Shown: positions 1-33,778 of the stretch, piece by piece
Layout of the letters: every line of letters starts with the position of its first letter
Position numbering within the stretch: the stretch's first letter is position 1
Source: a virus
Length of the DNA: 64,000 nucleotides
Direction: 5' to 3' (one strand)
Virus record (IMG/VR): IMGVR_UViG_3300032220_001630
Span: 39,136 to 103,135 of that record
Made by a program: the position numbers and the translations under genes
The notes under the pieces: generated by a model
The model's input: the letters and a program-made list of their open reading frames with translations, nothing else
The model's database searches: none
What the model was told of the DNA's origin: nothing

Positions 1-1365
1 GGTAGTAAAGATCAAAGTATTATAGATTCTTTCAGAAAACAATATCAGCAAGTACTAGACGATTTTACAAAGAGCTCAGAAGAATATGAAGTCAATTCTG
101 GTAAAGAATATGACGAGTATGTATCTAAAATTGATTTCTCTGAATTAGAAAAACCATTATCAGCAGCAAATAAAGCATTTGTAGAAGCAAAACTGCTATC
201 TTCAGATGTATTAAAAGAGATTAAGGATGTTTTAGCAATAGAAGGTGCGGGAAGTACAGGTTCAGGAGGTTCTACTGGAGGAACTAATAGTGGCTCAACA
301 AATACATCAAGTATTAAAGTTGCTAAAACAATTAAAAGTGGTACAACTCCAACAGGTGAAGATGCTGAGATAACTAAAAAGATTTTTGCATTAATCTGTG
401 AAAAATGGAAAGAATCGAAAACATTAACTGCTACTACAGCATGGAAAAAATCAGCATTCTGTTCACCTGGTTCATTAATCTTAGGACCTAACAGAAAAAA
501 ATGTGTAGCTGCAATTAAAGCTGCATATGGTATTTCCGATAGCAGTGGAGATTTAACACAAGAGTTAGTGGATAAATTATCTGCATCTGAAGCAGTTAAA
601 GAATCATTCGAAGTTAAATCAATTCCTACATCTTCGAGACTTCTTTCTTTCAATGATTTTTTATCCGCGAAATCAACATTCAATGAAGAGGTTAATATGG
701 ATGCTCTTAAAAAAGCATTAGGCGGTGGATCATCAGATGGTAAAAGTAAATCTGGATCTTCTGATAAAAAAAGTAGCTGGGAATCTCCATTCAAAAATAA
801 GGAAGAAGGAGACGCTTTTAGAAAATGGGTTAATGATAATCATTCAGACTGGGCTAAAGAAAATAAACTTGACGTAAGTGGAAGCCACACTAACTCTTTC
901 GTTAAAAAAGCTTGGGAAAAATTCAAGAATGACTATAAGCCAGGTGAAAATAAATCAGACAGTAAAGTAGATTCTGGAAACGCAAGTGAAAATGCTGCTG
1001 AGATAGAAAAACTAATGTTATCAGCTTCTGATTCAATCGTTGAGCTTTTCAATAACGCAGAATTTTGGAGAGATTATAAAGGTAAATTTGATGACAACGA
1101 AGAAAAAGCTAAAGTTGGATTCAATGATTGGTGGGATAATAATATCTTAAGAAAAAAACTTAAGCCCGCTAAGCAAAAATTAGAGACTTTACCAGAAGAT
1201 TCAGACGAAAAGAGTACTTGCAAGAAAATGTACGACACTATCGTAGGTCTAAAAAGCACTATAGATAATAAAATCATAGGCGAAACAGAGAACGATACTG
1301 CCACTTGGAAAATGTATTTGTTAAACGGAGAAGCTAAAAGCTACAAAGTAGATACAGATTTCTAA
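1..1365 (+). CDS. 5'-truncated hypothetical protein, probable virion-internal protein
   Basis: Frame 1 is open from base 1 (GSKDQSIIDSFRKQY...) to TAA at 1363-1365, so the 568 start in the ORF track is internal. Has Gly/Ser linkers and an internal RLLSFNDFL...FNEE motif. Confidence 0.8.
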   Translation, partial: GSKDQSIIDSFRKQYQQVLDDFTKSSEEYEVNSGKEYDEYVSKIDFSELEKPLSAANKAFVEAKLLSSDVLKEIKDVLAIEGAGSTGSGGSTGGTNSGSTNTSSIKVAKTIKSGTTPTGEDAEITKKIFALICEKWKESKTLTATTAWKKSAFCSPGSLILGPNRKKCVAAIKAAYGISDSSGDLTQELVDKLSASEAVKESFEVKSIPTSSRLLSFNDFLSAKSTFNEEVNMDALKKALGGGSSDGKSKSGSSDKKSSWESPFKNKEEGDAFRKWVNDNHSDWAKENKLDVSGSHTNSFVKKAWEKFKNDYKPGENKSDSKVDSGNASENAAEIEKLMLSASDSIVELFNNAEFWRDYKGKFDDNEEKAKVGFNDWWDNNILRKKLKPAKQKLETLPEDSDEKSTCKKMYDTIVGLKSTIDNKIIGETENDTATWKMYLLNGEAKSYKVDTDF

Positions 1366-1371
1366 AAGCAA

Positions 1372-1399
1372 GAAATTTTTAATAAATTAGGGGTATAAT
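1372..1399 (+). promoter_or_regulatory. Class II promoter-like motif GAAAT-N17-TATAAT
   Basis: Intergenic, 11 nt before ATG 1411. The same architecture recurs at seven other intergenic sites. Confidence 0.6.
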
Positions 1400-1410
1400 G
1401 AATAAACATT

Positions 1411-1947
1411 ATGCCCCTTTTAATTGTAGAAGGTCCTAGAAAATCCGGTAAAAGTTACCTAATATCCCAGCAGGATTCTCTTCCAGTTTTTAAGTTTAAC
1501 TTCAATGAGAATTTTGCATACTGGAACTTTGACAAAAATGGTAAAGATGTTCATTGGTTTGGACTGGGAAAAGAAGTTATGCTTCACGAATTGAACAATG
1601 CTGGATTTATTCCAAAGATGATTGTTGACAGGGGTATACTTACAAATTCAGTATGGGGAGTTTTCCAAAAGAGAATAACAGAGGAACAGGCAAAAAAAGA
1701 TCTTGTTAATTTCTATAAAAGAGGACTTTTTAACGATGTAAGTATCTTGCTAATCGAAGGTAATTACAAGAAGGATAGAGTAAAAGATATATGGGATCAA
1801 GACGATGCTAGACAGGATGAAGAAAGACGTCTTTTTTCATCGTTTTCTTTGCTTTTACGAGACTTAGGAGTAGAGGTCAATGTTTTCCATAATAATATGG
1901 ATTTGGACTCCGTAATAAGATTTAAAACAAAAATATCAGAATTATAA
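1411..1947 (+). CDS. P-loop nucleoside-monophosphate (thymidylate-kinase-like) kinase
   Basis: N-terminal LIVEGPRKSGKS Walker A and IVDRGILTNSVW, resembling the DRxxxS motif of dTMP kinases. Confidence 0.65.
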   Translation: MPLLIVEGPRKSGKSYLISQQDSLPVFKFNFNENFAYWNFDKNGKDVHWFGLGKEVMLHELNNAGFIPKMIVDRGILTNSVWGVFQKRITEEQAKKDLVNFYKRGLFNDVSILLIEGNYKKDRVKDIWDQDDARQDEERRLFSSFSLLLRDLGVEVNVFHNNMDLDSVIRFKTKISEL

Positions 1948-1951
1948 AAAC

Positions 1952-3367
1952 ATGTGTGGAATTTTAGTAGCTATTAACCCGACAAAGGAAAGGATAGAAT
2001 CTATATCTCATAGAGGAATAGAACATTCTATTGTAAACGATCAAAATCTATATCTAGTTCATCACAGGCTTCCAATACAAACAGTGGATGGTGATAGCTG
2101 GTCACAGCCTATACAAATTGGCGAAAATAGGTGGCTGTTATTTAATGGCGAGATTTTCAATTATAGTGGCGGATTCGATTCGGATACAGCATACCTTCAA
2201 AATCTATTTAGTAGTTTTAATTTTAGTGGTATTGACATGCTACAAGCTATATACGAACCCCATATAGTTTCATGGGATGGGTTTTGGGCAATAGTTATGG
2301 TAGACACCAAAGAGAAAGAAATATATGCTTTTACTGATCCTTTGGGCAAAAAGGTTTTATACAAGAACGATCTTGGCGAAATCTGCTCAGAAATAAAAGG
2401 ATTATTTGAAAAGGACAATGAACCCGCACCAGATCCATCATTCTTCAGTGGTGTTATAAAGTGGGGATATTTAACCACCGATCAGACACCTTATGAAGGC
2501 ATAAAAAAACTACAACCTAATAGATTTTATAAATGGAATCTCTATAACCCATCAAAAATGGAAGTATCTGATCCATATTATAATTTTTACTCTTTTGAGG
2601 CAGGATTAGAAACATATGAAGATAGAATGGATTGGTTATGGAATAAACTTGAAAATTCAGTAGAATCAAGATTGATCTCTAAAAACTACCCGACATCTCT
2701 TCTGTTATCAGGGGGTTTAGATTCTGCCATTATTGCAGGTCTTCTTCTTAAACTCGGAGCAGATGTTCAGTTTTATTCTATATCCAACGGTGAAGATGAG
2801 CAATACGTAAAAGCATGTGAGGAATATTGGGGTGTTAAATCTATAAGATTAGATTACGATGTTGACATAGAAAGCGAAGAGGGTAAGAATAAAACACTAG
2901 AAATATATCAGAAATGGAATGAATCACCCATAGATATGGGAAGTGTTCTACCTCAATATCATTTATTTGATGCAATAAAAAAAGGATCTAAAACCAGGAT
3001 AGTTATTTCAGGAGATGGAGCTGATGAATTATTTGGAGGATATAGGAGAATTAATGAATACGATTCACAAGATTCAGACATCTTTCACGAATTAACTTCA
3101 TACCATCTACCAAGATTGGACAAGTTATCAATGGCACACACCTTGGAGCTTAGAAGTCCTTTTTTAAATCACGACATAGTAAGATTTGCTTTAACACTTC
3201 CTTTTGAAGAGAGAAAGAATAAAAAAATATTGAAGGATACTTTTAAAGGATTAGTTCCAGATTCAGTAATTGAAAGAAAAAAATTGCCTCTTAAAAATCA
3301 GATGATTGTAGAGGATCAAATTTCTTACAGAAAAAAGATAAAGGATTTATATCTTAAATCCATTTGA
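1952..3367 (+). CDS. asnB: Asparagine synthetase B-like glutamine amidotransferase
   Basis: MCGI (Ntn Cys), HRG, HHRLPI, FNGEIFNY, LLSGGLDS, SGDGADELFGGY, RLDKLSMAHTLELRSPFL. Confidence 0.92.
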   Translation: MCGILVAINPTKERIESISHRGIEHSIVNDQNLYLVHHRLPIQTVDGDSWSQPIQIGENRWLLFNGEIFNYSGGFDSDTAYLQNLFSSFNFSGIDMLQAIYEPHIVSWDGFWAIVMVDTKEKEIYAFTDPLGKKVLYKNDLGEICSEIKGLFEKDNEPAPDPSFFSGVIKWGYLTTDQTPYEGIKKLQPNRFYKWNLYNPSKMEVSDPYYNFYSFEAGLETYEDRMDWLWNKLENSVESRLISKNYPTSLLLSGGLDSAIIAGLLLKLGADVQFYSISNGEDEQYVKACEEYWGVKSIRLDYDVDIESEEGKNKTLEIYQKWNESPIDMGSVLPQYHLFDAIKKGSKTRIVISGDGADELFGGYRRINEYDSQDSDIFHELTSYHLPRLDKLSMAHTLELRSPFLNHDIVRFALTLPFEERKNKKILKDTFKGLVPDSVIERKKLPLKNQMIVEDQISYRKKIKDLYLKSI

Positions 3368-4828
3368 TAAAACTACCTCCACACCCGCAACAGGATCCCC
3401 TTTTGCGTCTTTTGGAGAATATCCGTCTGGTCTATCTGTTAATACGAAATCCTCTGAAGGATCTACTATTAAACCTGCGGAGCTTAGAAAATCTCTATTT
3501 AATAAAAGAGGTGTGCTTTTTTCAGTTCTATCTACTAGTGAAAACTTTACTTTCTTGTAAAGAATACCATTGAATTCAACATCAAGATTAACAACCGCTC
3601 TGTGGTGGATTTTTTCACCAACCTCAGCTTTAGATTGTCCTACGATTTTATTTACAAATTGCTGATTACCTAAAGTCCATACCACTTCTCCGTCTTTTTC
3701 TTCGATAGTATCTGCGTGTAACGAACAAGACGTAGCACCATTACCAGTATCTAATTTTCCTACAAACGTACCAACTCCAGAGATAGATATCAATTCTCTA
3801 AATCCTGTTACTTTCTTAGGCTTAACCCAGTTTTTTCTATCAATTAAGAAATCTACTACAATATCTGTTACTGGTATACCGGTTGTTTTTTCTATCCCCG
3901 TAGTTCCAGGAGATGCGTTAACTTCTAATACGTATGGGTTTTCTGTTCCTTTATCAACAATTATATCAACTCCACACCATAGACAACCTGTAGCTTTAGC
4001 AGATTCAATAGCTATTTTTTCTATCGATTCTGGTAGCTCTACTGTTTCAGTGTCACCACCGAGTGAGAAGTTAGTTCTAAAATCGCCTTTAATCTTAATT
4101 CTTTTCATCGCTGCGATGACTTTGTACTCTCTTCCAGACATACCATCAGATTCAGCAATTACGTGAATTCTTAAGTCATATTCAGCTTCGATTTTTTCTT
4201 GTAAAACTATCTCAGTTCCTGGTGCTAAATGCCATAAAGCTTGAAGAGTAGAAACTAATGATGGTCTCGAATCAATCATGAATACTCCTATACCTTTAGT
4301 TCCTGAAAGAAACTTACATACTACAGGGTATTTTCCACCAACATCTTCAACAGCCTTATCTATATCTGCCTCAGAAGATATTAAAGATGTTTTAGGTACG
4401 GGGATATTATTTAATTGAAGCTTTCTTGTTGTTTGTAATTTATCCTCACATATGATAACAGAATCATAAGAGTTAACACAAGGAAAACCTAAATCTTCCA
4501 TTTTCTTAAAGAATCCCTTAGCAGCATTATTTTTTATGGAAGATCTTCTAGTTAGAACTATTGTACGATCAAGATAAATTTCTTGCTGTTTATCTCCTCT
4601 ACTAGATATAAGATATGTTCCTTTTGGTGTTTTTTGAATAGATCCTTTTTCTGTATCTACTATAATACATTTTAAACCTTTCTCCTCACATATCTTCATT
4701 ATTTTGTCAGTGGTTGGAGCATTCTTTAGGGTCTTACCTAATTTAGTGGTTAGCACAACTACTGTTAAGGGTCTTTCTTTTCCTTTTACCCCTTTGAATA
4801 TAAATTTTTCTAGCAATGGATTATCCAT
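3347..4828 (-). CDS. rimK: RimK-family ATP-grasp ligase fused to a C-terminal retropepsin-like (RimB / 'ATP-dependent Zn protease' family) peptidase
   Basis: ATP-grasp motifs KFLSGTKGIGV, LQEKI, DLRIHV, DFRTNFSLGG, GVDII, LEVNASPG. The C-terminal domain has KLDTGN and LLLNRDFL. Confidence 0.88.
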   Translation of the reverse strand: MDNPLLEKFIFKGVKGKERPLTVVVLTTKLGKTLKNAPTTDKIMKICEEKGLKCIIVDTEKGSIQKTPKGTYLISSRGDKQQEIYLDRTIVLTRRSSIKNNAAKGFFKKMEDLGFPCVNSYDSVIICEDKLQTTRKLQLNNIPVPKTSLISSEADIDKAVEDVGGKYPVVCKFLSGTKGIGVFMIDSRPSLVSTLQALWHLAPGTEIVLQEKIEAEYDLRIHVIAESDGMSGREYKVIAAMKRIKIKGDFRTNFSLGGDTETVELPESIEKIAIESAKATGCLWCGVDIIVDKGTENPYVLEVNASPGTTGIEKTTGIPVTDIVVDFLIDRKNWVKPKKVTGFRELISISGVGTFVGKLDTGNGATSCSLHADTIEEKDGEVVWTLGNQQFVNKIVGQSKAEVGEKIHHRAVVNLDVEFNGILYKKVKFSLVDRTEKSTPLLLNRDFLSSAGLIVDPSEDFVLTDRPDGYSPKDAKGDPVAGVEVVLSNGFKI

Positions 4829-4832
4829 GTTG

Positions 4833-4840
4833 TATATATC
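4833..4840 (-). promoter_or_regulatory. Class I (putative late) promoter motif GATATATA
   Basis: Minus strand reads GATATATA-caac-ATG(4828). Confidence 0.65.
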
Positions 4841-4850
4841 GATATAACAC

Positions 4851-4877
4851 TAAAAAGCCTAGAATAGTCTAGGCTTT
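4851..4877 (-). terminator. Rho-independent terminator after the Glu-rich gene
   Basis: Perfect 10-bp stem AAAGCCTAGA-atag-TCTAGGCTTT, with a U-run on the minus strand. Confidence 0.8.
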
Positions 4878-4897
4878 ATAAATTGTATATTTAAGTT

Positions 4898-5647
4898 TTA
4901 ATTGAAGAACTTATCAAATCTTATAACTCTTTGAGATTCCTCCTCTTTATCTTCCAGATCTGATTCATCCTCTTCCTCAGTATCTTCAGTATCATCTTCT
5001 ATCTCAGTAGTTTGCATAGGGGCTTCATCTGAAATAACCTCGTTATCATCTTCTTCCTCGGTTTCTTCATCTTCATCTTCTTCGTCTTCTTCTTCGTCTT
5101 CTTCATCTTCTTCAGATTCCTCGTCTTCATCTTCATCTTCAGATTCATCGTTCTCTTCCTCGTCTTCAGATTCTGCATCTTCTTCAGATTCCTCGTCCTC
5201 GTCTTCCTCTTCAGGCTCTTCTTCGGTTTCCTCTTCTGATTCTTCTTCAGATTCCTCGTCTTCCTCTTCAGACTCTTCCTCAGTCTCTTCTTCAGATTCC
5301 TCGTCTTCCTCTTCGGACTCTTCCTCAGTTTCTTCGTCTTCCTCTTCGGACTCTTCTTCTGATTCTTCGTCTTCCTCTTCGGACTCTTCTTCTGATTCTT
5401 CCTCAGTCTCTTCTTCAGATTCCTCGTCTTCTTCTTCAGTTTCCTCTTCAGATTCTTCCTCAGTTTCCTCAGTGTTGTCAGATTCTTCTTCAGAACCTTC
5501 CTCCTCTGATTCTTCTTCAGTTTCCTCCTCGTCCTCAGTTTCCTCCTCTTCCTCTATTTCTAGATCTTTCCAGATTTCATTTTCTTCTGGTAATTGGTTG
5601 CTTCTATTAGAGGCAAACTCTTCGAATGATAATATTTTTTTCTCCAT
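4898..5647 (-). CDS. Extremely acidic poly-Glu/Asp low-complexity protein (possible prohead core/internal protein)
   Basis: About 200 aa of EEE[S/T/D] repeats, flanked by KKILSFEEF at the N-terminus and RVIRFDKFFN at the C-terminus. Confidence 0.85.
   Translation of the reverse strand: MEKKILSFEEFASNRSNQLPEENEIWKDLEIEEEEETEDEEETEEESEEEGSEEESDNTEETEEESEEETEEEDEESEEETEEESEEESEEEDEESEEESEEEDEETEEESEEEDEESEEETEEESEEEDEESEEESEEETEEEPEEEDEDEESEEDAESEDEEENDESEDEDEDEESEEDEEDEEEDEEDEDEETEEEDDNEVISDEAPMQTTEIEDDTEDTEEEDESDLEDKEEESQRVIRFDKFFN
4940..5557 (-). repeat. Coding low-complexity tandem repeats (EEES/EEET/EEED units)
   Basis: TCTTC/TCCTC-rich tract including a tandem 33-bp duplication starting at 5331. 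Confidence 0.85.
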
Positions 5648-5653
5648 TTTGTT

Positions 5654-5905
5654 TTATTCTGTTATTCCTATAGCATGAGCACTTCCAGATTCGGTAGCGC
5701 CATATCCAGGATAGTCTATTTTAGATACGCCTTTAAAAACGGAATCTTGGAATCCAACATAAGCATAAGCCTCTTCAGGTGTTATTTTATGTAGTCCAGT
5801 TCTGTCTTCTTTGCTAAGATTTTCAGGATTCCATGGGTCTTGTGCGACTTTCATAAAATCCTTATAGCTAAGAATTTCTCTCTTTTTTATGTTCTTTTGG
5901 TTCAT
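5654..5905 (-). CDS. Small hypothetical protein with ILSYKDFM motif
   Basis: 83-aa ORF packed tightly between co-oriented genes. Confidence 0.75.
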   Translation of the reverse strand: MNQKNIKKREILSYKDFMKVAQDPWNPENLSKEDRTGLHKITPEEAYAYVGFQDSVFKGVSKIDYPGYGATESGSAHAIGITE

Positions 5906-5919
5906 TTTAATTACTTCTT

Positions 5920-6627
5920 TTAGAATTGTAGGATATTAGATAATCCGGTTTTCATGGCCTTAGCAAAAATGTTAGGGTCATTAGTTTCCGCTTTTTCTAT
6001 TTCTGATGATAATTTTTGTTTGTCTCCTTGAGTAATGTTACCAGATAAAACGTCACCTAGACTAAATCCACATATTTTATCTCCTATCATTTTCTCTACG
6101 TTATTCATGAAGTTAGTATTGTTTATAGCATTAGTTAAAGCTTCTCTTAATCCTGCTGATATAGTACCACCCATACCTGTATTCATGTCAATTTTTAATC
6201 CTAGTTTAGGTAATAAATATTCTACTCCTCTCTCTTGCAATGTTTCAGATAATCCCTCTACTATTGCTCTTGCCCAATTTTTACAAGATCCTTTACCAAA
6301 ATAACTTCCCAACTCGGTTATACTTACTCCTTCTATTACGTTTCTTATAAGTTGGTAAAAGAATGTTGGCTGGTTTTGTTCATCGTAAGGTTCTATACCT
6401 AATTTTTGTGCTGCCCAGTCGATAACATAATCTTTAAAGGTATCAGTAAAACCTCCACCTAAAGATCCAAGTAAAGATGAAAAAATGTTTTCGTTTATTT
6501 CTTGCTCTGATAGACCCTCTCCCTTCATTCTCAAATACTCATTCTCGAGTATAGCTATTTGATCTTTTGAACCATTATTTCTAGGTGTTGCCGACTCAGA
6601 AACAAACTGTGAATATCTGTATATCAT
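5920..6627 (-). CDS. Putative head-internal/ejected protein
   Basis: N-terminal MIYRYSQFVSE, then EINE followed by amphipathic NIFSSLLGSLGGG. Class I motif upstream. Confidence 0.7.
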   Translation of the reverse strand: MIYRYSQFVSESATPRNNGSKDQIAILENEYLRMKGEGLSEQEINENIFSSLLGSLGGGFTDTFKDYVIDWAAQKLGIEPYDEQNQPTFFYQLIRNVIEGVSITELGSYFGKGSCKNWARAIVEGLSETLQERGVEYLLPKLGLKIDMNTGMGGTISAGLREALTNAINNTNFMNNVEKMIGDKICGFSLGDVLSGNITQGDKQKLSSEIEKAETNDPNIFAKAMKTGLSNILQF

Positions 6628-6645
6628 TCCCGTTTACTTTTCTTA

Positions 6646-6680
6646 TATATATCATTTTACTATCTAAATTCTGATATATA
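6646..6680. promoter_or_regulatory. Back-to-back divergent class I GATATATA motifs
   Basis: TATATATC at 6646-6653 serves the minus-strand gene at 6627; GATATATA at 6673-6680 serves the plus-strand gene at 6688. Confidence 0.65.
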
Positions 6681-6687
6681 AGGAGAA

Positions 6688-7098
6688 ATGTCTAGAATAC
6701 TAAAAATTGACGATTTTGAAAAATCATTCCCTACCAAATATGGTTTGGATGCTGATGGATCTTGTTACGAGATAGAATCTCCATTTGATATAATGATAAT
6801 TGTAGATTATGAAGATTTAGACGGGCAGATTGATACTAAATACAAATCACCAAAATGGGAAAAGTTTAAAACTAGCAAGGGTGATGTTATACTGTGTAGT
6901 AAAAACGGATCTTTTATATTTCCAAAAGACAAAGAAGGATTCGTAGAATGCACACCAGTAAAAGATTCAAATCAACAAGATATTAGTTTTGATACATTTC
7001 CAAAAAATTCTTTAAAGAAAATAGGAAAGGATCTTTTTAGAATGCACTCTATGCCTTTCGAGGAAAGAAAAAAAATGACCATCTTTAACGGGCTATGA
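6688..7098 (+). CDS. Hypothetical protein
   Basis: 136-aa ORF with AGGAG upstream. N-terminus is MSRILKIDDF. Confidence 0.8.
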   Translation: MSRILKIDDFEKSFPTKYGLDADGSCYEIESPFDIMIIVDYEDLDGQIDTKYKSPKWEKFKTSKGDVILCSKNGSFIFPKDKEGFVECTPVKDSNQQDISFDTFPKNSLKKIGKDLFRMHSMPFEERKKMTIFNGL

Positions 7099-7649
7099 AA
7101 AATTTAAAGAATTTCAAAAATTTTATTATCAATGAGAGTTCTGCTGCAGGAAACAGAGAACATACTTACGATACTCCATTCTCTTACACCTCAAACGATC
7201 CAAAATTTGGATACAACAGTAAAAGCTTTGTAGACGACCTTAAAGCTCTTTTTGTAGAGAAACCTTCTCTGAAAGGAGAAATTACTGAATTTCTTGTTCA
7301 AAATACAGGGATATCAAGAGTTGAGGATTTAGCTTTAAAGCCTTTTGCATTAATAAAAGAGATAATTCCTGAAATAGAAAGAATAATAGCTGCTGGAGAA
7401 TATGAGCCAGAACTTATTATGCCTGGTGGTGCTTTACTGTTTATAAGAAATAAAATACTAGACAACGGAAAAGGAGCTGATTTCTATATAAACAGGAAAG
7501 GAACTAAAATAGAAGTTGTTACTGACGATTTTAACGGGGAAGAAAAAGTATTATTCTACAATTCTAAAAATTTCCCGTACGATAGGTATGATTTCACACA
7601 AGAGGAAAAAGAAGAACTTCAATCAATTATAAAAGCAAAGGGAGCTTAA
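7095..7649 (+). CDS. Putative head-internal protein with capsid-targeting-like N-terminus
   Basis: Starts MKNLKNFKNFIINE; ATGA overlap with the upstream gene. Confidence 0.75.
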   Translation: MKNLKNFKNFIINESSAAGNREHTYDTPFSYTSNDPKFGYNSKSFVDDLKALFVEKPSLKGEITEFLVQNTGISRVEDLALKPFALIKEIIPEIERIIAAGEYEPELIMPGGALLFIRNKILDNGKGADFYINRKGTKIEVVTDDFNGEEKVLFYNSKNFPYDRYDFTQEEKEELQSIIKAKGA

Positions 7650-8356
7650 TTATTATTAAAATTTTTAAGTATAAGCTCTATAGATTTTTCTTTTCCTATT
7701 TCGGTTCCTGTTTCTAGATCGACACCTTTAGCAACATCCGCAATAATAACACAATCAAATTTATCTGAGAAATCTTTTATATTGGTCTTCAAAAATCTTC
7801 TTATTTTAATAATCTCAGTGGTTGTTTCGCATTTAGGATCTAACATTTCTGTCATAAGAAGTGCTACTTTTTCATCATCCCCTATCTTAACAACAGAAAA
7901 GAACCAGCTAAATACTTTCATATATTCCTCTTCGGTTTTTCTTACTACCAAAAATCCCTGATCCCAAAGATTGTATCTGGTACAATAGCTTTCAACATCA
8001 ACTAGTGAATTATATTTAAAAGACACCTCTTTATTCTCCTCCATAAATTTATCTATGGTTTCTATGGAGTTTTTAACTATCGTCTCTATTTCGCCGATCA
8101 GATCTAAGTTTTTATCTAGTAAGTTGTAGAAAATATTTTTATCTACGTCGGTCATATTTGCAAGGGTCCTTTGACTAAACTCTGTTTTTTTATCAAAACT
8201 CTCAAGATCTCTCTTAAGTATTAATACCTCTTTAAAGTGTTTCTCAAATCCCTTTTTATTAAAATTATTTTTTGCCTTCGTTAGTAAATCCATCAAAACA
8301 TAATATTTATGCTCTACATCTATAGGGGATTCGAGAAACCAATATGGCTTTATCAT
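7646..8356 (-). CDS. Hypothetical protein resembling a conserved Bacteroidota family
   Basis: N-terminal WFLESPIDVEHKYYVL resembles the W-x4-IDFE-x-K-x-Y-x-LL start of a Bacteroidota hypothetical family (from recollection, not searched). Confidence 0.7.
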   Translation of the reverse strand: MIKPYWFLESPIDVEHKYYVLMDLLTKAKNNFNKKGFEKHFKEVLILKRDLESFDKKTEFSQRTLANMTDVDKNIFYNLLDKNLDLIGEIETIVKNSIETIDKFMEENKEVSFKYNSLVDVESYCTRYNLWDQGFLVVRKTEEEYMKVFSWFFSVVKIGDDEKVALLMTEMLDPKCETTTEIIKIRRFLKTNIKDFSDKFDCVIIADVAKGVDLETGTEIGKEKSIELILKNFNNN

Positions 8357-8439
8357 TATCTTGTATTATTCTGTATCTATAACTTATATATAGAACAAAA
8401 TGTTTTATTCCGGTTGTAGAAAAAAATTTTTCTATATGT

Positions 8440-8517: not shown

Positions 8518-9141
8518 ATGTGCCCCCAATTCTTAGTTATCGCTTACTATACTGAAAACACTTCCTACCAAGACTTAGCTGAAAAATTAAAAAATTCGCT
8601 TCAAAGGTTTGGTTTACCCCATTACATAGAACCTATCAAAGATCAAGGCTCATGGGAAAAGAATACACACTACAAAGCTTATTTTATTAAGAAATGTCTA
8701 AATGACAGAAATCTAGATCTTCTCTACGTAGATGTAGATGCAGTGTTTAAAGCGTATCCTAGCTTAATCGATGGCTTAGATTGTGACATTGCATACAGAA
8801 CCCAAGATTTTAGATGGAGAAAAGATGAGGCCTTATCTGGTACTATCTTTCTAAAGAACAATGACAAGGTAAAGAGGTTAGTTGATAGGTGGATAGAGAT
8901 TAACGAAAAGACTCCTGCTGAAAGAATGAAACCTGAGACCTGGGAGCAAAAAAATATGCAAACCGCACATAGAGAATTCTCCGATGTGGTTTATTATAAT
9001 CTACCACCAGAATATACTTTTATATTTGATCACTCAAGAACAATGTATCCTAAGGCTTCTCCTGTAATAGAGCATTACCAAGAATCTAGAAATGTACATC
9101 GAAATAATTTACAATCTCGAGGTATAATTAGAAAAAGATAG
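8518..9141 (+). CDS. GT-A nucleotide-diphospho-sugar transferase
   Basis: WEKNTHYKAYFI, LYVDVDA (DxD), SGTIFL, EQ, LPPEY, VIEHYQ. Confidence 0.8.
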   Translation: MCPQFLVIAYYTENTSYQDLAEKLKNSLQRFGLPHYIEPIKDQGSWEKNTHYKAYFIKKCLNDRNLDLLYVDVDAVFKAYPSLIDGLDCDIAYRTQDFRWRKDEALSGTIFLKNNDKVKRLVDRWIEINEKTPAERMKPETWEQKNMQTAHREFSDVVYYNLPPEYTFIFDHSRTMYPKASPVIEHYQESRNVHRNNLQSRGIIRKR

Positions 9142-9142
9142 A

Positions 9143-9874
9143 ATGCAATTAACCTATGCAGTAGTCAGCTCTAATTCCAACCCTGAGTACTTGGATTTTT
9201 GGCCATATGTGGCAAAAATGTGGCAGAGGATAGGATTAGAGCCTGTCCTTTTTTATATAGATAAAGAAGCTCCTAAGGAAAATGCGGCAGAATATGGTAG
9301 AGTTATCTTTCTAGAATCTATACCCGAATGGGACATAGCCCAACAGGCACAGTGTATTAGATTTTGGGCTGCAAAGGTTTTAGACAATCCTTTTATTATC
9401 TCAGATATTGATATGCTTCCTATTTCAAAGGATTATTACATAAATGAAGCATTGAAAATAGGACACAGAGGTATAATATCCTATAGTTCTGATATTATCA
9501 AATATAGATGGTATAGGACTAATCCTCAGTATCCTATGTGTTATCTTGCCGGAGATCCCTTATCATTCACACAGCTTCTGGATATGAATGATACTGATCA
9601 TAAAAGTTTTCTCAGAAGATTAATGAGAATGAATATCAGATTTGGTACTGATCAAAAATTCTTCTATAACCAATCCCTTCGAAAGCCTGATATTAAAATT
9701 AAGCATTTGGAGAGAGGATGGATAGAAGAAAAATATGCGGTTAAAAGACTTGATAAAGCTATCTGGCCAAAATCTGATTATAATCCAGAGGAATATATAG
9801 ACTGTCATTTACCTAGACCCTTATCATCAAATGCAGTCCTTTGTAAAAAATTATTTAGTAAGCTAGATTTATGA
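9143..9874 (+). CDS. Putative GT-A glycosyltransferase (paralogue of 19972-20799)
   Basis: YLDFWP, ISDIDMLP (DxD), YPMCY, IDCHLPRP. Confidence 0.65.
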   Translation: MQLTYAVVSSNSNPEYLDFWPYVAKMWQRIGLEPVLFYIDKEAPKENAAEYGRVIFLESIPEWDIAQQAQCIRFWAAKVLDNPFIISDIDMLPISKDYYINEALKIGHRGIISYSSDIIKYRWYRTNPQYPMCYLAGDPLSFTQLLDMNDTDHKSFLRRLMRMNIRFGTDQKFFYNQSLRKPDIKIKHLERGWIEEKYAVKRLDKAIWPKSDYNPEEYIDCHLPRPLSSNAVLCKKLFSKLDL

Positions 9875-10512
9875 CAAATCTCCCTATATTTATATCCTAT
9901 CATACTGGGGATTCTTATTATTCCTCCTGTGCAGAAAATCTTGTATCTAATATAAGATCTTTAGGCGGTGAGATAATAATGGAGAAAGTTACAGATACTG
10001 GATATTACTGGAAGAATACTTTAAAAAAGCCTGGGTTCATACTTTCTAAAATGGATGAACTAAAAAGAGATCTAATTTGGATAGATGCAGATACCAATAT
10101 TTTTGGATATACAGATTGTATGAAAAAATGGGAATCCGATATACTATTTGCATCCCATACCGGAGACATCCATGGTATAAAGGCATCTCCTATGGGTATA
10201 AAGTACAGTGAAAAAACACTGGGATTCTTTAAAAAATTTTCAGATTTGTGTAATCATAAAATAGAATCCAATGAATTGGATTTAGATCACGACGTTTTAA
10301 AGTATGAATTACTTCCTGATTACAAGGAGAAGATCAGTTTAGAAATTTTAGGTTGTGAAGGAGTACCATCGGATTACACAGACGGGAAATATATAAGAAA
10401 TGGAATTTCCAGAGGAATTAATAAAGGAAGAGAGGTTCATTCTGTCACTTTAAAAAATTCTACTAGAGATCTAAAATTTAGAATGCTATCTTTAAATGAC
10501 TTCACAATATGA
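9871..10512 (+). CDS. GT-A nucleotide-diphospho-sugar transferase
   Basis: YWKNTLKKPGFI, IWIDAD, LDHDVLK. Confidence 0.75.
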   Translation: MTNLPIFISYHTGDSYYSSCAENLVSNIRSLGGEIIMEKVTDTGYYWKNTLKKPGFILSKMDELKRDLIWIDADTNIFGYTDCMKKWESDILFASHTGDIHGIKASPMGIKYSEKTLGFFKKFSDLCNHKIESNELDLDHDVLKYELLPDYKEKISLEILGCEGVPSDYTDGKYIRNGISRGINKGREVHSVTLKNSTRDLKFRMLSLNDFTI

Positions 10513-11324
10513 GCACATACAGAGTAACTAAAAGAGGTGACCTTAGAAGAAGAGTAATTAATAATTCACCACCTTTACAAAATTCAAACAAAAACGAAAT
10601 AGGAAAAGAAGAAAAAATGAACGAAGATTTATTTTATCCGATTAAAAATTCTAGGGAAAGAAAAATAATAGAAAGAAAGGAGAGATTGACAGGTAAAGAT
10701 GATATTGTAATATCTTTTATATCTGATCCCGTAGGATCAAATTTTTACAGCGAAAAATTTAGAACCTTATTAGATAAGGTGGATCAATTAGGACTTGATT
10801 ATATTTTCTGTAAATACGAAAGTGATAGGAATTATTACCAGAACTGCTGTTACAAGCCATATTTTATAAAGACACTTATCAAAGAAACTGGAAAAAACGT
10901 TATATGGGTCGATGGAGATACAATATTAAAGAATGGGTTTTCTTCATTAAACAGAAAGGATAAGGAATTTGATATGGGATTAGTATCATATACAGGATCG
11001 ATGGATTCTTTTGTAGCATCCCCTGTTTATTTCAAAAACACAGAGGTAAGCAATACTATTATAGATCATTGGGAAAACCATTGTACTTCTAGAATAGAAA
11101 ATGGAGAATGTGAGTTAGATCATGATGCTTTAAAGCATTCTATACTTCCACATTATAGAGATAGAGTTAGAATCAATCTCTGTGGGATCGAGCTCCATAA
11201 GGGAGAAAACGTAGAAAATGTAAATTCAGATGTTCCGTATAAAAGAGATATACTTATAAAAATGAGAAGCGTAAATATGAATAGAACATTTCCAGGAAAT
11301 ATAACAAACTATAATATAGTATGA
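10509..11324 (+). CDS. GT-A nucleotide-diphospho-sugar transferase with basic N-terminal extension
   Basis: YYQNCCYKPYFI, IWVDGD, LDHDALK. Confidence 0.75.
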   Translation: MSTYRVTKRGDLRRRVINNSPPLQNSNKNEIGKEEKMNEDLFYPIKNSRERKIIERKERLTGKDDIVISFISDPVGSNFYSEKFRTLLDKVDQLGLDYIFCKYESDRNYYQNCCYKPYFIKTLIKETGKNVIWVDGDTILKNGFSSLNRKDKEFDMGLVSYTGSMDSFVASPVYFKNTEVSNTIIDHWENHCTSRIENGECELDHDALKHSILPHYRDRVRINLCGIELHKGENVENVNSDVPYKRDILIKMRSVNMNRTFPGNITNYNIV

Positions 11325-12166
11325 ATAAATTAAAAACTAACTGGGCGCCTTTTCCTCACGAGTATTCGTCTTGTTCAAATTTTAAACCTGAGGACTTCGA
11401 ATGGTCAAGAACTGAGGGAATAGCTAATATAGTTATCGATAATCAGATAATGACTTACAATCCTCCTTTAAACGAGAAAAATTTTGGATGGTTCTGTGAG
11501 TCCAGTGAAATACTTCCATCTTTAAAATCCTATATTAGAAGTAATATGCCGGCTCTAAAGAGGAAGTTTAGAAATATATTTACCTCTGATCGTGAAATAA
11601 TCTCTTGGGATCCAAGCTTTTTTATATTTAACCCTCCAGGATCTAATTTACCATGGACACCTAAGAATAATTATAGGATTCCTGAAAAAACTAAAAAATG
11701 CTCAATGATCTGCAGTCCAAAAAGTATGACATCCGGACATAAATTGAGATTAGAAGTAGCAGAAAAATATAGTGCAAATTTTGATCTGTTTGGCGGAGCA
11801 TCAGGAAGCTCTCGAATAGGATCCGGATCTGGTCCTAATGGAGATTGGTGGAGATCTAAAGAAGAAGCATTAGCTCCATATATGTTTTCTTTAGTTTTTG
11901 AGAATGCTAAAATAGATAAGTATTATACTGAAAAAATAACAGATTGCTTTGCATTGGGGGTAATTCCTATATACTGGGGAACCGATAAGATCTCTGAAGA
12001 TTTCAATATGGGAGGTATTATTAAATGGGAAGATAATTTTGATTTTTCTATGCTTACGTTGGATCTTTACAACTCTAAAATGGAATATGTAAAAGATAAC
12101 ATGGAAAGAGTCAGAAATATGTTATCCGCAGATTCATTAATTTTCAATAAGATAAAAACTTTATGA
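11321..12166 (+). CDS. GT10 (alpha-1,3-fucosyltransferase-like) glycosyltransferase
   Basis: YMFSLVFEN...YYTEKITDCFALGVIPIYWG signature. Confidence 0.85.
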   Translation: MNKLKTNWAPFPHEYSSCSNFKPEDFEWSRTEGIANIVIDNQIMTYNPPLNEKNFGWFCESSEILPSLKSYIRSNMPALKRKFRNIFTSDREIISWDPSFFIFNPPGSNLPWTPKNNYRIPEKTKKCSMICSPKSMTSGHKLRLEVAEKYSANFDLFGGASGSSRIGSGSGPNGDWWRSKEEALAPYMFSLVFENAKIDKYYTEKITDCFALGVIPIYWGTDKISEDFNMGGIIKWEDNFDFSMLTLDLYNSKMEYVKDNMERVRNMLSADSLIFNKIKTL

Positions 12167-12885
12167 GTAAAATAAACCTCGTAGCTGCATCCAGACAAAG
12201 ACCAGTAAGGATGTTCAATGTATTAAAAAAATGGCTGAGTAATTCTGCATCACCTTCTGATATAAAGGTAATTATATCTATAGACTCTAGCGATCCTACA
12301 ATTGATAAATATTTTGAATTAATAAATCCATTATCGCTGGAATACAATACAAATATATTGATAATTGTTAACCACAATACATGTACAGTTGAAGCAATAA
12401 ATTCTGTTAAGCCATATTTGGATGGGGATTTAGTTATAGTATTTTCTGATGACACAGATTGCTTTAAAAATTGGGATAAGGAATTGATAGATTTCTCGAC
12501 TAATCTTTCAGGTAAATATGTGATAAAGACCTCTGATGGAATAGGCAAAGACCTTATTACAATGCCAGTATTTTCTAAAGAATATTTAGATGGATTCACT
12601 TACATATACCATCCATCTTACAAGCATATGTTTTGTGATACAGAACTTACGTGTGTAGCTACCGTATTAGGGTGTGTGATTAATGGCGATCAATTTGAAT
12701 TTAAGCATTTACACTACTCCCAATTACATCATGATAAGGATTCTGTTGATGATAAAAATCAATCTACTTTTTATGACGGAATGGACATTTTTAAAGAAAG
12801 ACTTTCTAATAATTTCGATCTAGAACCTTCTGATTTTAAATGTGAAATGCCAAAAGAAATAATAGAATGGATATCTCAAAAATAA
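12163..12885 (+). CDS. GT2-like glycosyltransferase
   Basis: ASRQRP, IDSSDP, VEAIN, VFSDD, YHPSYKHMFCDTELT. Confidence 0.7.
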   Translation: MSKINLVAASRQRPVRMFNVLKKWLSNSASPSDIKVIISIDSSDPTIDKYFELINPLSLEYNTNILIIVNHNTCTVEAINSVKPYLDGDLVIVFSDDTDCFKNWDKELIDFSTNLSGKYVIKTSDGIGKDLITMPVFSKEYLDGFTYIYHPSYKHMFCDTELTCVATVLGCVINGDQFEFKHLHYSQLHHDKDSVDDKNQSTFYDGMDIFKERLSNNFDLEPSDFKCEMPKEIIEWISQK

Positions 12886-13532
12886 ATCTTGATAGAGTAA
12901 CATTGGTGTGTATCGATGGGAGGGAAGAGGATTCTGAAAGAACCTCTAGATATAGAGATATATTTAGATACTCTATGAATCATATTGATTTTAAAAGAGT
13001 AATTTTTTTCAGCCACATAGATTACAAATTCGATGGGGTAGAAACTATTAATATATGGAAACTAGGAAGTACTGGTGAATATTCTAATTTTTGTATGAGA
13101 TTGCTAAATCCTTATATCAATACAGATTACTGTATGATTATGCAGGATGATGGATTTATATTAAATCCTGATCTATGGGATGATGAATTTTTATCTTATG
13201 ATTATATAGGAGCTCCCTGGCCTATAGGATTAGGATCTACTACAGAGGAAACACAGGTAGGAAATGGAGGATTTTGTATAAGAAGTAAAAAATTTCTAGA
13301 GTTTAGTTCTAAGCTTTTCCCTACAATGCAAAACGAGGATAAGTACATATTAGAAACTAACAGAAAAGCAGTTAATCAAGCGAATTTAAAAATAGCACCA
13401 GTCGAGTTAGCTAAAAGATTTTCTGTAGAAATTCCAATAGATGATCAGCATAGTATAAAGAATTGTTTTGGTTTTCATGCAAAACATCTATTGGAAGAAT
13501 CAATTGAATACATAAAAAATAAAAATAAATGA
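12867..13532 (+). CDS. DUF5672 (GT-like) protein
   Basis: QDDGFILNPDLWDDEFLSYDYIGAPW, VGNGGFCIRS, NED, FGFH. Confidence 0.8.
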   Translation: MDISKINLDRVTLVCIDGREEDSERTSRYRDIFRYSMNHIDFKRVIFFSHIDYKFDGVETINIWKLGSTGEYSNFCMRLLNPYINTDYCMIMQDDGFILNPDLWDDEFLSYDYIGAPWPIGLGSTTEETQVGNGGFCIRSKKFLEFSSKLFPTMQNEDKYILETNRKAVNQANLKIAPVELAKRFSVEIPIDDQHSIKNCFGFHAKHLLEESIEYIKNKNK

Positions 13533-14110
13533 CTAAACAAATCAAAGCCTTTAACACGGATTACAAACTAGCAGAAAGATTTATTGCTTTTAAGAAAAAG
13601 TACAAAATAAAAACTGCAATAGAAACCGGAACATACCATGGAGACACCACATCCTGGCTAGCAGAAAATTTCGATACTGTATATACTGTCGAATACGATA
13701 AAAGATATCTAGACGTGGCTCAGGATCAAATATCCAAGTATACCAATATAAGAAGTTATTTAGGTAGCAGCACGGATTATCTTGGAAAATTCCTTGATGA
13801 ATCAAAGGATAATAATGTTATAGTTTTCCTAGATGCACATTGGTATGCTAATCCAGTATTACAAGAACTGGACAGGATTAGAGAGTCTGGAACAAAACCT
13901 GTTCTTGCTATACACGATTTCAAAGTTCCAGAAAGACCAGATCTTGGTTATGATGAATATCCTAATCAGGGTATAGTCTATGAATGGAATTGGATAAAGG
14001 AAAAAATAGATGCCATTTATGGAATCGATCAGTATGACATAGAATACAATACATACTCTGAACAAAATATGAGAGGCTGTATATTCATATTACCAAAAAA
14101 TAAATTATGA
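13529..14110 (+). CDS. Class I SAM-dependent methyltransferase
   Basis: IETGTYHGDT, YTVE, GSS, FLDAHW, IHD. Confidence 0.8.
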   Translation: MTKQIKAFNTDYKLAERFIAFKKKYKIKTAIETGTYHGDTTSWLAENFDTVYTVEYDKRYLDVAQDQISKYTNIRSYLGSSTDYLGKFLDESKDNNVIVFLDAHWYANPVLQELDRIRESGTKPVLAIHDFKVPERPDLGYDEYPNQGIVYEWNWIKEKIDAIYGIDQYDIEYNTYSEQNMRGCIFILPKNKL

Positions 14111-14796: not shown

Positions 14797-14797
14797 A

Positions 14798-16302: not shown

Positions 16303-16303
16303 C

Positions 16304-17921: not shown

Positions 17922-17927
17922 AATATT

Positions 17928-20799: not shown

Positions 20800-20801
20800 A
20801 A

Positions 20802-21440: not shown

Positions 21441-21444
21441 ATCT

Positions 21445-23570: not shown

Positions 23571-23584
23571 TTCACGTTATAGGA

Positions 23585-23613
23585 GGAACTATCTTTAATA
23601 CATTTTATATAAT
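23585..23613 (+). promoter_or_regulatory. Class II promoter-like motif before fcl-gmd-kds
   Basis: GGAAC-N18-TATAAT in the largest gap within the glycan locus. Confidence 0.55.
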
Positions 23614-23627
23614 TTATAAATATCGTT

Positions 23628-33768: not shown

Positions 33769-33778
33769 AACATAAACA

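Follow-up and report, generated by a model that had tools for sequence, protein, structure and literature searches.

A conserved peptide tag resembling the T4 capsid targeting sequence on unrelated proteins of a phage contig, with internal and C-terminal copies

The closest described system is the capsid targeting sequence (CTS) of phage T4, carried by IPI, IPII, IPIII and Alt and removed by the prohead protease gp21. The T4 sequences read MKTYQEFIAE in IPII and IPIII and MKTFKEF...ITE in IPI. For IPIII, residues 4 and 7 are reported to carry targeting and residues 8 and 10 processing, according to passages of PMC9026906. Alt is cut at both ends, and the protease of SPN3US has been proposed to be targeted via a C-terminal propeptide, as set out in parts of PMC9026906 and PMC7411985. 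In phiKZ, 201phi2-1 and SPN3US, a gp21-related protease cleaves numerous head proteins after Glu residues, and the propeptides have been proposed to be CTS-like (passages of PMC5694885 and PMC7411985). The propeptides described there are mostly over 100 residues long, with S/A/G-x-E or A-x-E sites, and without a short shared consensus.

The locus and its tagged proteins

The window analyzed is the terminal 64 kb of a 103-kb (103,135-bp) phage contig of 34% G+C, and 100 ORFs were called by script on the whole contig. T4-type head genes are present. The prohead protease is of the T4 gp21 type (gp21/S77-S80; PF03420 at 39.5 bits, where the cut-off is 27, phrog_207 at 5.5e-39, and also above the PF20034 cut-off), and it is fused to a repeat scaffold that makes up the C-terminal 450 residues of the protein. 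In this 686-aa fusion the protease domain takes up residues 1 to about 170, the repeats residues 280-480 and a C-terminal domain residues 510-686. The fusion gene lies 3-7 kb upstream of the window, as does the gene for the gp23-family capsid protein (PF07068, 8.3e-39), and two gp20-family portals (PF07230, about 1e-59) are encoded on the same contig. The counterpart of the protease in phage PTm1 is annotated as "prohead core scaffolding protein and protease," and 540 stretches in IMG/VR were reported to encode a relative of the protease. A megablast search of window positions 1-8400 against the phage collection gave no matches, and neither the tagged proteins nor several of their orthologues exceeded any Pfam or PHROGs cut-off.

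The first-pass annotation had quoted seven peptides as copies of a T4-like tag, and all seven were located in the translated sequence where it had placed them. The 577-aa head-module protein (1..1365, plus strand) starts 368 nt before the window, which contains its last 454 codons. Its N terminus is MAISNNFRMLME, of which the orthologues keep F-x-x-L-[LM]-E, while the internal tag RLLSFNDFLSAKSTFNEE occupies residues 336-353 (637..690, plus strand) and was kept in 4/4 distinct orthologues. The internal tag has the core h-h-[ST]-[FY]-x-x-F followed by h-[NT]-E 3-8 residues on, and is flanked by poorly conserved linkers. An impression that the segment ahead of the internal tags resembles a peptidoglycan-binding domain found no support in Pfam. 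Three loci (L027, L041 and L081) each have a large ORF that begins with NP[LT]F[ED], the leader of a 181-aa family, and later in its sequence matches the 577-aa protein; in L027 the residues F-I-N-E-S stand at the junction of the 181-aa-like and 577-aa-like parts. The idea of a gene fusion is a lead only, with the 181-aa part giving no BLAST match.

Four smaller tagged proteins follow. The 83-aa protein (5654..5905, minus strand) contains REILSYKDFM at residues 9-18, the tag being taken as EILSYKDFMK at residues 10-19 (5849-5878, minus strand). The 235-aa protein (5920..6627, minus strand) begins with MIYRYSQFVSE (6595-6627), which has the register of the T4 IPII/IPIII leader plus one residue, and a variable linker comes next. 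The 136-aa protein (6688..7098, plus strand) opens with MSRILKIDDF (6688-6717) and has no adjacent h-x-E. The 184-aa protein (7095..7649, plus strand) carries the N-terminal tag MKNLKNFKNFIINE (7095-7136), and the predicted structure places this tag in a disordered stretch (residues 1-38, pLDDT below 50) that precedes a folded domain of helices and beta-sheet (residues 40-184). A Foldseek comparison of the 184-aa model with the PDB gave no match at E <= 0.001, and an ESM Atlas search with the 235-aa protein returned one viral cluster at 0.79, which was uninformative. The 236-aa protein (7646..8356, minus strand) has an N terminus conserved among orthologues as M(x)KPYWF[LI]E[SD]; this is possibly, though uncertainly, a further leader ending in h-x-E.

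A divergent pair of GATATATA motifs at 6646..6680, a candidate late promoter or start-region element, stands 19 nt before the start of the 235-aa gene (minus strand) and 8 nt before that of the 136-aa gene (plus strand), and another GATATATA (4833..4840, minus strand) lies 5 nt ahead of the start of a RimK-like gene (3347-4828, minus strand). Same-strand starts with RATATATA in the preceding 40 nt numbered 14, where 0.56 would be expected; among them were those of portal 1, the protease, three tag-cluster genes and baseplate genes.

The most unusual carrier is a poly-Glu protein of 249 aa (4898..5647, minus strand) in which 135 Glu and 31 Asp residues account for 67% of the chain and both ends are tagged. 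Its N-terminal tag, MEKKILSFEEFASN (5606..5647, minus strand), opens MEKKILSFEEF, with a core like that of T4 IPI and no adjacent h-x-E. The C-terminal tag, RVIRFDKFFN (4901..4930, minus strand), abuts the stop codon. The pattern [RK]VIRFD[KN]FF was found in all six orthologues whose 3' end lies inside the locus, two of the six being identical, and [IV]-E-E is conserved where the acidic run begins. In distant relatives, an acidic stretch occurs within the scaffold protein.

Copies beyond those listed at first were found at the N termini of the upstream 290-aa, 93-aa and 292-aa ORFs and inside an 867-aa ORF upstream of the protease. In all, leaders of 10-19 residues occur at the N termini of eight unrelated proteins, in addition to the internal and C-terminal copies. 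That the carriers are unrelated, as had been claimed, was borne out: with the first 25 residues removed, no pair among 13 proteins was similar at E < 0.05.

Consensus, position and conservation of the tag

The core of the tag consists of two hydrophobic residues, any residue, an aromatic or aliphatic residue, any residue, an acidic or polar residue, and Phe. The Phe, together with an aromatic or aliphatic residue at -3, was found in 11/11 instances. Enrichment was assessed against 500 shuffles of the contig ORFs. The pattern suggested with the first-pass annotation, [ILV]xx[FY]xxF[ILV]xE, proved too narrow and was not enriched, matching once (MIYRYSQFVSE) against a shuffled mean of 0.48, with 193/500 shuffles reaching one match. 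The looser expressions were composed after the instances had been inspected, and are to be read as post hoc: [ILV][ILV][SKR][FYIL][DEKNQ][DEK]F gave 7 matches against 0.25, and [ILV]xx[FYLI]x[DEKNQ]F within the first 25 residues gave 10 against 2.4, counts reached by 0/500 shuffles in each case. Enrichment at N termini over shuffled proteins was obtained with the looser post hoc expression; the one first put forward was not enriched.

In a leave-one-out profile of the 11 instances, eight ranked 9th to 14th of 32,035 positions, directly behind the ten training instances; the tags of the 83-aa and 136-aa proteins each ranked 10th and the N-terminal tag of the poly-Glu protein 11th. The C-terminal copy ranked 47th, and the two tags most like that of T4 IPII, from the 235-aa and 184-aa proteins, ranked 146th and 281st. 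Because these two are weakly recognized by the profile of the others, there may be two tag classes with different partners.

The matches are strongly over-represented, fall mainly at N termini and are confined to a head-proximal region of 22 kb. N-terminal matches occurred in 8 of 23 ORFs between 25.2 and 47.5 kb of the contig versus 2 of 77 elsewhere (Fisher P = 8.7e-5). The cluster had been called a head-cargo island. A tagged cluster near the head genes is indeed present; against the island, three untagged enzymes (1411-4828) interrupt the tagged genes in mid-cluster, and several carriers look more like core or scaffold parts than cargo.

The tags are conserved in relatives. Every tag is retained in nine syntenic IMG/VR loci, which are 70-87% identical to the 235-aa query, and the codons of the conserved tag residues differ synonymously (TTT/TTC, ATA/ATT/ATC and GAA/GAG). 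In an eight-row alignment of the 184-aa family, F7, F10 and E14 are invariant while the residues between them vary, and positions 4 and 12 are of the I/L/V type in seven of the eight rows; in the eighth, L014, a one-residue deletion shifts the register. Orthologues in L006 to L014 keep the Phe and the -3 residue in all but three cases, which come from the two loci that have diverged most: Tyr for Phe in the N-terminal poly-Glu tag (L006) and in the 136-aa tag (L014), and Asp at -3 in the latter. The internal copies of the 577-aa and 867-aa proteins are retained where their flanks are not. That of the 867-aa protein was kept, judged by eye, in about 35 of 40 distinct orthologues, each then followed by h-x-E. 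Among 456 distinct ORFs of 43 distant loci, 26 had a match to the core expression beginning at residue 12 or earlier, where 6.5 were expected (P = 4e-9, a value to be read with the caveat that these orthologues are not mutually independent). Inspection by eye of the capsid gene neighborhoods in LR756500, PTm1 and pT24 showed no obvious tags.

A possible cleavage site, [ILVF]-x-E, comes after both internal copies and after the N-terminal tags of four proteins (235, 184, 290 and 93 aa); the predicted cuts would fall after E11 in the 235-aa, E14 in the 184-aa and E353 in the 577-aa protein. No h-x-E adjoins four copies, namely, the N- and C-terminal tags of the poly-Glu protein and the tags of the 83-aa and 136-aa proteins; therefore, the description "cut off after loading" cannot apply to them. 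The internal and C-terminal copies, which had been said to go beyond T4's rule of N-terminal tags, are real and conserved in orthologues. The contrast with T4 was overdrawn, however, since C-terminal processing also occurs there in Alt, which is cut at both ends according to passages of PMC9026906.

Proposed role and alternative explanations

The motif is interpreted as the T4-type CTS system of this phage lineage, a reading that we hold to be somewhat better than an even chance from the sequence comparisons. The resemblance to the T4 CTS that had been pointed out is upheld by the preserved spacing, by the gp21, gp23 and gp20 families on the contig and by the conservation of the tags in relatives. 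The tag would be a short amphipathic peptide that binds the prohead core made by the protease-scaffold fusion, and this binding would draw the carrier into the head while the shell is still open. Where [ILVF]-x-E lies within 0-8 residues of the tag, as in the 235-, 184-, 290- and 93-aa proteins and both internal copies, the gp21-type protease would cut and free the mature protein; the internal copies would divide their proteins in two, with the C-terminal half set free within the head. Carriers with tags that have no cut site (the poly-Glu protein at both termini and the 83-aa and 136-aa proteins) would stay attached to the core. The poly-Glu protein, tethered by both ends, is probably a prohead-core polyanion analogous to T4 gp67, and certain carriers are probably core parts rather than cargo. 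Core binding, cleavage and presence in the virion are what we infer from these features.

A bolder extension, which we regard as doubtful, is that the tag is a free-standing copy of one scaffold repeat unit. The cargo would be taken in as an additional strand of the scaffold coiled coil and be freed by the cut that dissolves the scaffold, gene fusion and fission would turn N-terminal tags into internal ones, and the doubly tagged poly-Glu protein would cross-link the core. The protease-scaffold fusion contains 12-16 tandem units of 14 residues (NISYSEYLAENLDK), with 14 in this phage, and each unit carries Y-x-x-Y-[LI]-A-E, which is likely to be a cut site. A profile of the full 14-mer recovered none of the tags among its top 30 matches, with counts equal to those of shuffles. 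A 9-residue core profile, chosen after the 14-mer had failed, placed the 235-aa tag 2nd and the 93-aa tag 17th of 31,457 positions; matches per score again equaled shuffles, and this result is suggestive only as support for scaffold mimicry. When the scaffold core profile was run over 92 kb of T4 (28,094 positions), its top two matches were the targeting sequences of IPIII and IPII. A post hoc expression, [IL]S[YF]x[DE][YF], occurred 7 times in the scaffold and 5 times elsewhere (four tags and capsid residue 129) against 0.46 expected, a count biased by its construction. The likeness between tag and repeat suggests what the tag binds, which is unsettled even in T4.

The same repeats bear on an alternative that we consider unlikely, in which the motif serves chiefly as an extended element by which the prohead protease recognizes or docks onto its substrates (P10 to P4) rather than as an address label, with the carriers arriving by other means. 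The probable cut site in all 14 scaffold repeats would fit such a role, as would the [ILVF]-x-E that follows both internal and five or six N-terminal copies. A role in cleavage alone nevertheless leaves unexplained the four conserved copies with no nearby h-x-E, one of which is the extreme C terminus of its protein. In addition, the equivalent T4 residues 4 and 7 affect targeting and not processing, according to passages of PMC9026906.

It is similarly improbable that the carriers are not cargo but structural parts of the prohead core (gp22-, gp67- and gp68-like) with the peptide as a common assembly helix, so that little or none of them would reach the mature head or the host. The 331-, 290- and 93-aa proteins are rich in Lys and Glu and look helical by eye, and their genes and that of the poly-Glu protein come directly after the capsid gene. 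The poly-Glu protein itself, with its short N-terminal leader and acidic tail, is built like gp67, and the acidic stretch inside the scaffold of distant relatives points the same way. Such a role is less easily reconciled with the 184-aa protein, in which a disordered leader precedes a folded domain of helices and beta-sheet, or with the 235-, 136-, 83- and 577-aa proteins, which are mutually unrelated and nearer to the T4 internal proteins than to a scaffold. Finally, a motif unrelated to the head (a membrane or other localization helix, an AT-rich start bias, or chance) is very unlikely: in a genome of 34% G+C the codons for Lys, Asn, Ile and Phe occur often near starts, and no partner was found, but the conserved residues vary synonymously in codon, copies are also internal and C-terminal, the matches are confined to the head module, and shuffles never reached the observed counts.

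If the CTS interpretation is correct, the head-loading tag of T4 would be an old portable device common to a large clade of uncultured giant phages and not a speciality of the T-even phages. A sequence rule would then predict which proteins are carried into the host, the likeliest first-strike counter-defence or take-over factors, and the internal and C-terminal copies would show the tag used for domain release or for tethering a polyanion. The scaffold-repeat reading, if true, would give the long-unknown T4 CTS receptor a concrete form, and the likeness of tag and repeat points to a possible means of packing foreign proteins into large capsids.

Comparison with T4 and the giant phages

The class of tag is already known; the new features are that copies inside proteins and at a C terminus are conserved and that the tag resembles the 14-residue repeat of the scaffold. 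As with the T4 CTS, short N-terminal leaders are found on unrelated proteins of a phage with gp20, gp21 and gp23 homologues. The key positions are three apart (Y4/F7 in T4, F4/F7 in IPI), and [LI]-x-E comes directly after them in IPII and IPIII or some residues on in IPI, as a candidate [ILVF]-x-E site does here after part of the tags; the spacing of an aromatic or hydrophobic residue, two residues, Phe and then [ILV]-x-E is common to both. Counterparts of the IPII/IPIII tag are YSQFVSE, KDFLSE and FKNFIINE, and those of the IPI tag are SFEEF, SYKDF and SFNDF. Unlike in T4, the first of the two key positions is frequently aliphatic and has another hydrophobic residue before it, two large proteins contain conserved internal copies and a third protein has one at its C terminus, several copies have no cut site, and protease and scaffold are one protein.

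Among the T4 core proteins, gp67 (80 aa) has a short leader ending in L-I-E and a C-terminal Asp/Glu run. A gp67-like protein would be small, with a leader ending in h-x-E, a helix and an acidic tail. By eye the poly-Glu protein looks built in this way, though no h-x-E directly follows its tag; it is three times longer than gp67, has acidic residues at 67% of its positions and bears another tag at the C terminus. T4 gp22 begins with LIAE and contains KEWLAEN, which is similar to SEYLAEN of the scaffold repeat, whereas the scaffold in this phage is composed of 14 tandem 14-residue units fused to the protease. Compared with the long propeptides described in passages on phiKZ, 201phi2-1 and SPN3US, the leaders reported here are 10-20 residues long, with a clear shared core and a hydrophobic residue at P3.

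Tag copies and their distribution

All seven peptides quoted in the first-pass annotation as resembling the T4 capsid targeting sequence (CTS) were present at the positions claimed, namely in proteins of 184 aa (window 7095-7649, +), 235 aa (5920-6627, -), 136 aa (6688-7098, +) and 83 aa (5654-5905, -), at both ends of a 249-aa poly-Glu protein (4898-5647, -) and within a 577-aa protein. Further copies were located at the N-termini of the 290-aa ORF (MEIKRLKDFELNE) and the 93-aa ORF (MGIVKLKDFLSE), both upstream of the window, at the N-terminus of a 292-aa ORF at contig 25204 (MKKPIIKSLDEF) and internally at residue 472 of the 867-aa ORF directly upstream of the protease (PILSFEDFYSVIEE). The carriers proved to be unrelated, as had been proposed, no mutual match being found at E < 0.05 once the first 25 residues were removed.

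The regular expression offered in the annotation for scanning the proteome did not perform, as it matched one tag only and gave no enrichment in the contig ORFs relative to shuffled proteins. Looser patterns gave 7 matches versus 0.25 expected and 10 N-terminal matches versus 2.4, neither count being reached in 500 shuffles, and these patterns were post hoc, written once instances had been seen; all motif definitions were post hoc except the leave-one-out and distant-set tests. The leave-one-out profile was the fairer test, and here 8 of the 11 instances ranked 9th to 14th of 32,035 positions, which is the best match after the training set. The C-terminal copy of the poly-Glu protein ranked 47th, and the two tags most like those of T4 IPII and IPIII ranked only 146th and 281st, from which two sub-classes were deduced. 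We see class A as h-h-x-[FYLI]-x-[DEKN]-F (h, hydrophobic), resembling T4 IPI (MKTFKEF), and class B as aromatic-x-x-F-h-x-E, resembling T4 IPII/III (MKTYQEFIAE). N-terminal matches were concentrated at contig 25-47 kb (8 of 23 ORFs versus 2 of 77 elsewhere; P = 8.7e-5). Since the contig covers a fragment of the genome, these tag counts fall short of the whole proteome. The ORF calls followed a simple longest-ATG rule, which mis-started at least one orthologue group (the 136-aa family in the syntenic loci L011-L013).

Several neighboring observations were made. A 213-aa protein without a Pfam family in the glycosyltransferase region (window 9871-10512, +) ends in the tag-like RMLSLNDFTI at its very C terminus, the second-best non-training match to the tag profile (12.5 bits, 32,035 positions), and its orthologues finish in SLSLENF or SLSLKNF-like peptides. 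The segments before the two internal tags (282-346 of the 577-aa and 428-481 of the 867-aa protein) matched weakly (31% over 65 residues, E = 0.065) and may represent a shared module of domain, linker and tag. The 867-aa (L002:9457-12060, in the upstream contig stretch) and 181-aa (L002:18203-18748) families, and also large ORFs of distant relatives (MSGIYKGYNPIFES, MKNNIYNPLFES), begin with a different N-terminal leader that is likewise conserved, Y-x-x-x-N-P-[ILV]-[FY]-E-[SQ]. T4 gp2 (L096:28061-28885) begins MAIFQIINES, near the FIINES of the 184-aa tag (window 7095-7136), and the gp2-like protein of the contig begins MKPFNQLFED.

Conservation in relatives

Nine syntenic loci, with 70-87% identity to the 235-aa query, were recovered from IMG/VR, and these retain every tag. 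Across the eight aligned rows of the 184-aa family, F7, F10 and E14 were invariant and the positions between varied freely; positions 4 and 12 were of the I/L/V type in seven of eight rows, the register of L014 being shifted by a one-residue deletion. Since conserved tag residues were encoded by differing synonymous codons across relatives, selection was deduced to act on the peptide rather than on start-region RNA. SSAAGN is conserved directly after the Glu in the 184-aa family, and the linker after the Glu is variable in the 235-aa family.

The C-terminal and internal copies noticed in the annotation were both borne out. The former reads [RK]VIRFD[KN]FF in each of the six orthologues with a 3' end inside the locus (two identical); the poly-Glu orthologues span 184-249 residues, and the acidic run between the tags differs. 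The internal copy of the 577-aa protein was kept in 4/4 distinct orthologues, always followed by h-[NT]-E and flanked by poorly aligned low-complexity linkers.

Querying with the protease gave 540 stretches encoding a relative, of which 79 loci were kept (38-92% identity). By eye, the ORF upstream of the protease carries an internal [ILV][ILV][SRN]F-x-x-F, then h-x-E (a predicted gp21-type cut site) within 2-8 residues, in about 35 of 40 distinct orthologues, and the tag is missing in L049, L051, L070, L081 and L085. Among 456 distinct ORFs from the 43 most distant loci, 26 have a class A regex match beginning in their first 12 residues, against 6.5 predicted from the frequency of internal matches (P = 4e-9, a generous value because the ORFs include each other's orthologues). 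Examples from this set, MKIKRYDRYIAEE and MIKRYNQFLNEA, are very near the T4 tag.

Gene setting and nature of the carriers

The contig measures 103,135 bp (34% G+C), the window being its final 64 kb, and no tRNA gene was found in the window. By tblastn, the large window proteins matched solely huge uncultured phages (LR756500 at 33-43% identity), Lak megaphages of Prevotella, and jumbo phages of Tenacibaculum, Chryseobacterium, Flavobacterium and Sphingomonas. Ahead of the window, the contig codes for a DNA end protector resembling T4 gp2, two tandem portals of the gp20 type, a 686-aa prohead protease of the gp21 type and a capsid protein of the gp23 type. The 3.2 kb from the end of the protease and capsid genes to the window start contain five ORFs (331, 290, 93, 181 and 577 aa), the last of which enters the window as the ORF 1-1365 of the annotation.

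RATATATA occurs 29 times on the contig, and 14 copies are followed within 40 nt by a start codon on the same strand versus 0.56 expected, all 14 lying 5-20 nt before it; total octamer counts on the contig were not above chance. Window copies are at 4833, 6646, 6673, 28597, 43734, 46102, 46493 and 47298. The motif is a candidate late promoter or start-region signal. It precedes portal 1, the protease, the 331-, 181-, 235- and 136-aa genes, the RimK-like gene and four baseplate-region genes, and since it is common to tag-cluster and structural gene starts, the two groups are probably expressed together.

No Pfam or PHROG family was found for any carrier, and the 184-aa fold gave no PDB match at E <= 0.001. 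Its AlphaFold model (eight sequences; mean pLDDT 69.6) has a helical plus beta-sheet domain at residues 40-184, preceded by residues 1-38 at pLDDT below 50, as would be expected of a detachable leader. The poly-Glu protein is built like T4 gp67, which has a leader ending L-I-E, a helix and then an Asp/Glu run, and the scaffold of the most distant relatives has an acidic stretch of its own, between the repeats and the C-terminal domain (alignment columns 601-650). On these grounds we take the poly-Glu protein to be no cargo but a putative core polyanion, provided in trans and tethered at its two ends. Better cargo candidates for the proposed head-cargo island are the 184-, 235-, 136- and 83-aa proteins and the C-terminal half of each of the 577- and 867-aa proteins. 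The 331-, 290- and 93-aa proteins are rich in Lys/Glu and may also be core parts.

Untagged genes lie inside the cluster. Window 1411-3367 (+) encodes a small P-loop protein with a weak match to AAA_14 and an amidotransferase of the asparagine-synthase type (PF00733, 3e-38), syntenic in those relatives that extend to them; as a guess, they modify head proteins. Adjoining the poly-Glu gene, window 3347-4828 (-) encodes a fusion of a RimK-type ATP-grasp domain with a PF05618 'Zn_protease' domain, and GATATATA sits 5 nt ahead of its start. Cutting by a prohead protease leaves Glu at the C-terminus, and RimK extends an end of this kind on protein S6. Farther on, about 25 genes run on the same strand (window 8518-27609, +). 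Among six put through Pfam, only a family-10 fucosyltransferase C-terminal domain was above cut-off (29.5 bits versus 23.9); two were weak (Nucleotid_trans-like, Glycos_transf_2) and three had no credible match.

The scaffold repeat and comparison with known systems

The protease is a fusion to a scaffold (L002:12083-14143, contig 32083-34143, upstream of the window), its C-terminal part comprising 14 exact-period units of 14 residues (consensus NISYSEYLAENLDK) and a conserved C-terminal domain. Of 79 protease loci, 75 have arrays of 8-16 units, down to 38% identity, the remaining four covering only the gene 3' end, and in many units Y, Y, A and E show no variation. Each unit bears a T4-type site, [LI]-A-E, so that cutting would reduce the scaffold to 14-mers.

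By eye, the unit YSEY[LI]AE resembles the T4 tag YQEFIAE and the 235-aa tag YSQFVSE, which reads YSQFLAE in three orthologues; T4 gp22 contains KEWLAEN and begins LIAE. Tests of this likeness were mixed. The full 14-mer profile did not find the tags in the contig ORFs. A 9-residue core profile, picked afterwards, placed the 235-aa tag second of 31,457 positions, with matches at that score no more frequent than in shuffles. In T4 (157 ORFs from 92 kb, 55% of the genome) it placed the IPIII tag first and the IPII tag second of 28,094 positions. Such a score is not remarkable in itself, as the shuffled T4 proteome gave 0.9 matches reaching it; a known CTS would take first place by chance about 2 times in 10,000, but the likeness had been seen beforehand. 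The boldest reading, which we keep but consider unlikely, is that the tag is a free-standing copy of one repeat unit; the shared pattern may equally reflect the extended substrate preference of the protease.

The best reading of the tag is a T4-type CTS. According to PMC9026906, the first ten residues of T4 IPIII are enough for packaging, targeting depends on residues 4 and 7 and processing on 8 and 10, and Asp at 10 stops cutting and not targeting; T4 leaders have 10-19 residues, and Alt is cut at both ends. Further background on the CTS and processing comes from PMC3012670, PMC5694885 and PMC7411985. Class B tags retain all four positions, two targeting and two processing, and class A tags retain the two targeting positions, as in T4 IPI, whose cut site is 12 residues further on. 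A protease of the T4 gp21 type, matching a CTS system, is encoded by the phage. Judged by sequence, the tag has the short leader form and the two targeting positions of a T4 CTS, with an h-x-E site after some copies, and the system is predicted to work like it. A thin literature search found CTS work only on T4 and phiKZ-like phages, and none pairing 'capsid targeting sequence' with huge phage, megaphage or jumbo phage, absence from print being unproven.

In contrast to T4, tags are here also conserved inside proteins and, on a polyanion, at the C-terminus, and the protease is fused to a scaffold with a regular repeat. Some copies also differ from T4 in having no cut site, which fits the T4 finding that targeting needs no cutting. 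The propeptides of phiKZ and SPN3US, unlike the tags described here, are long and have no short consensus.
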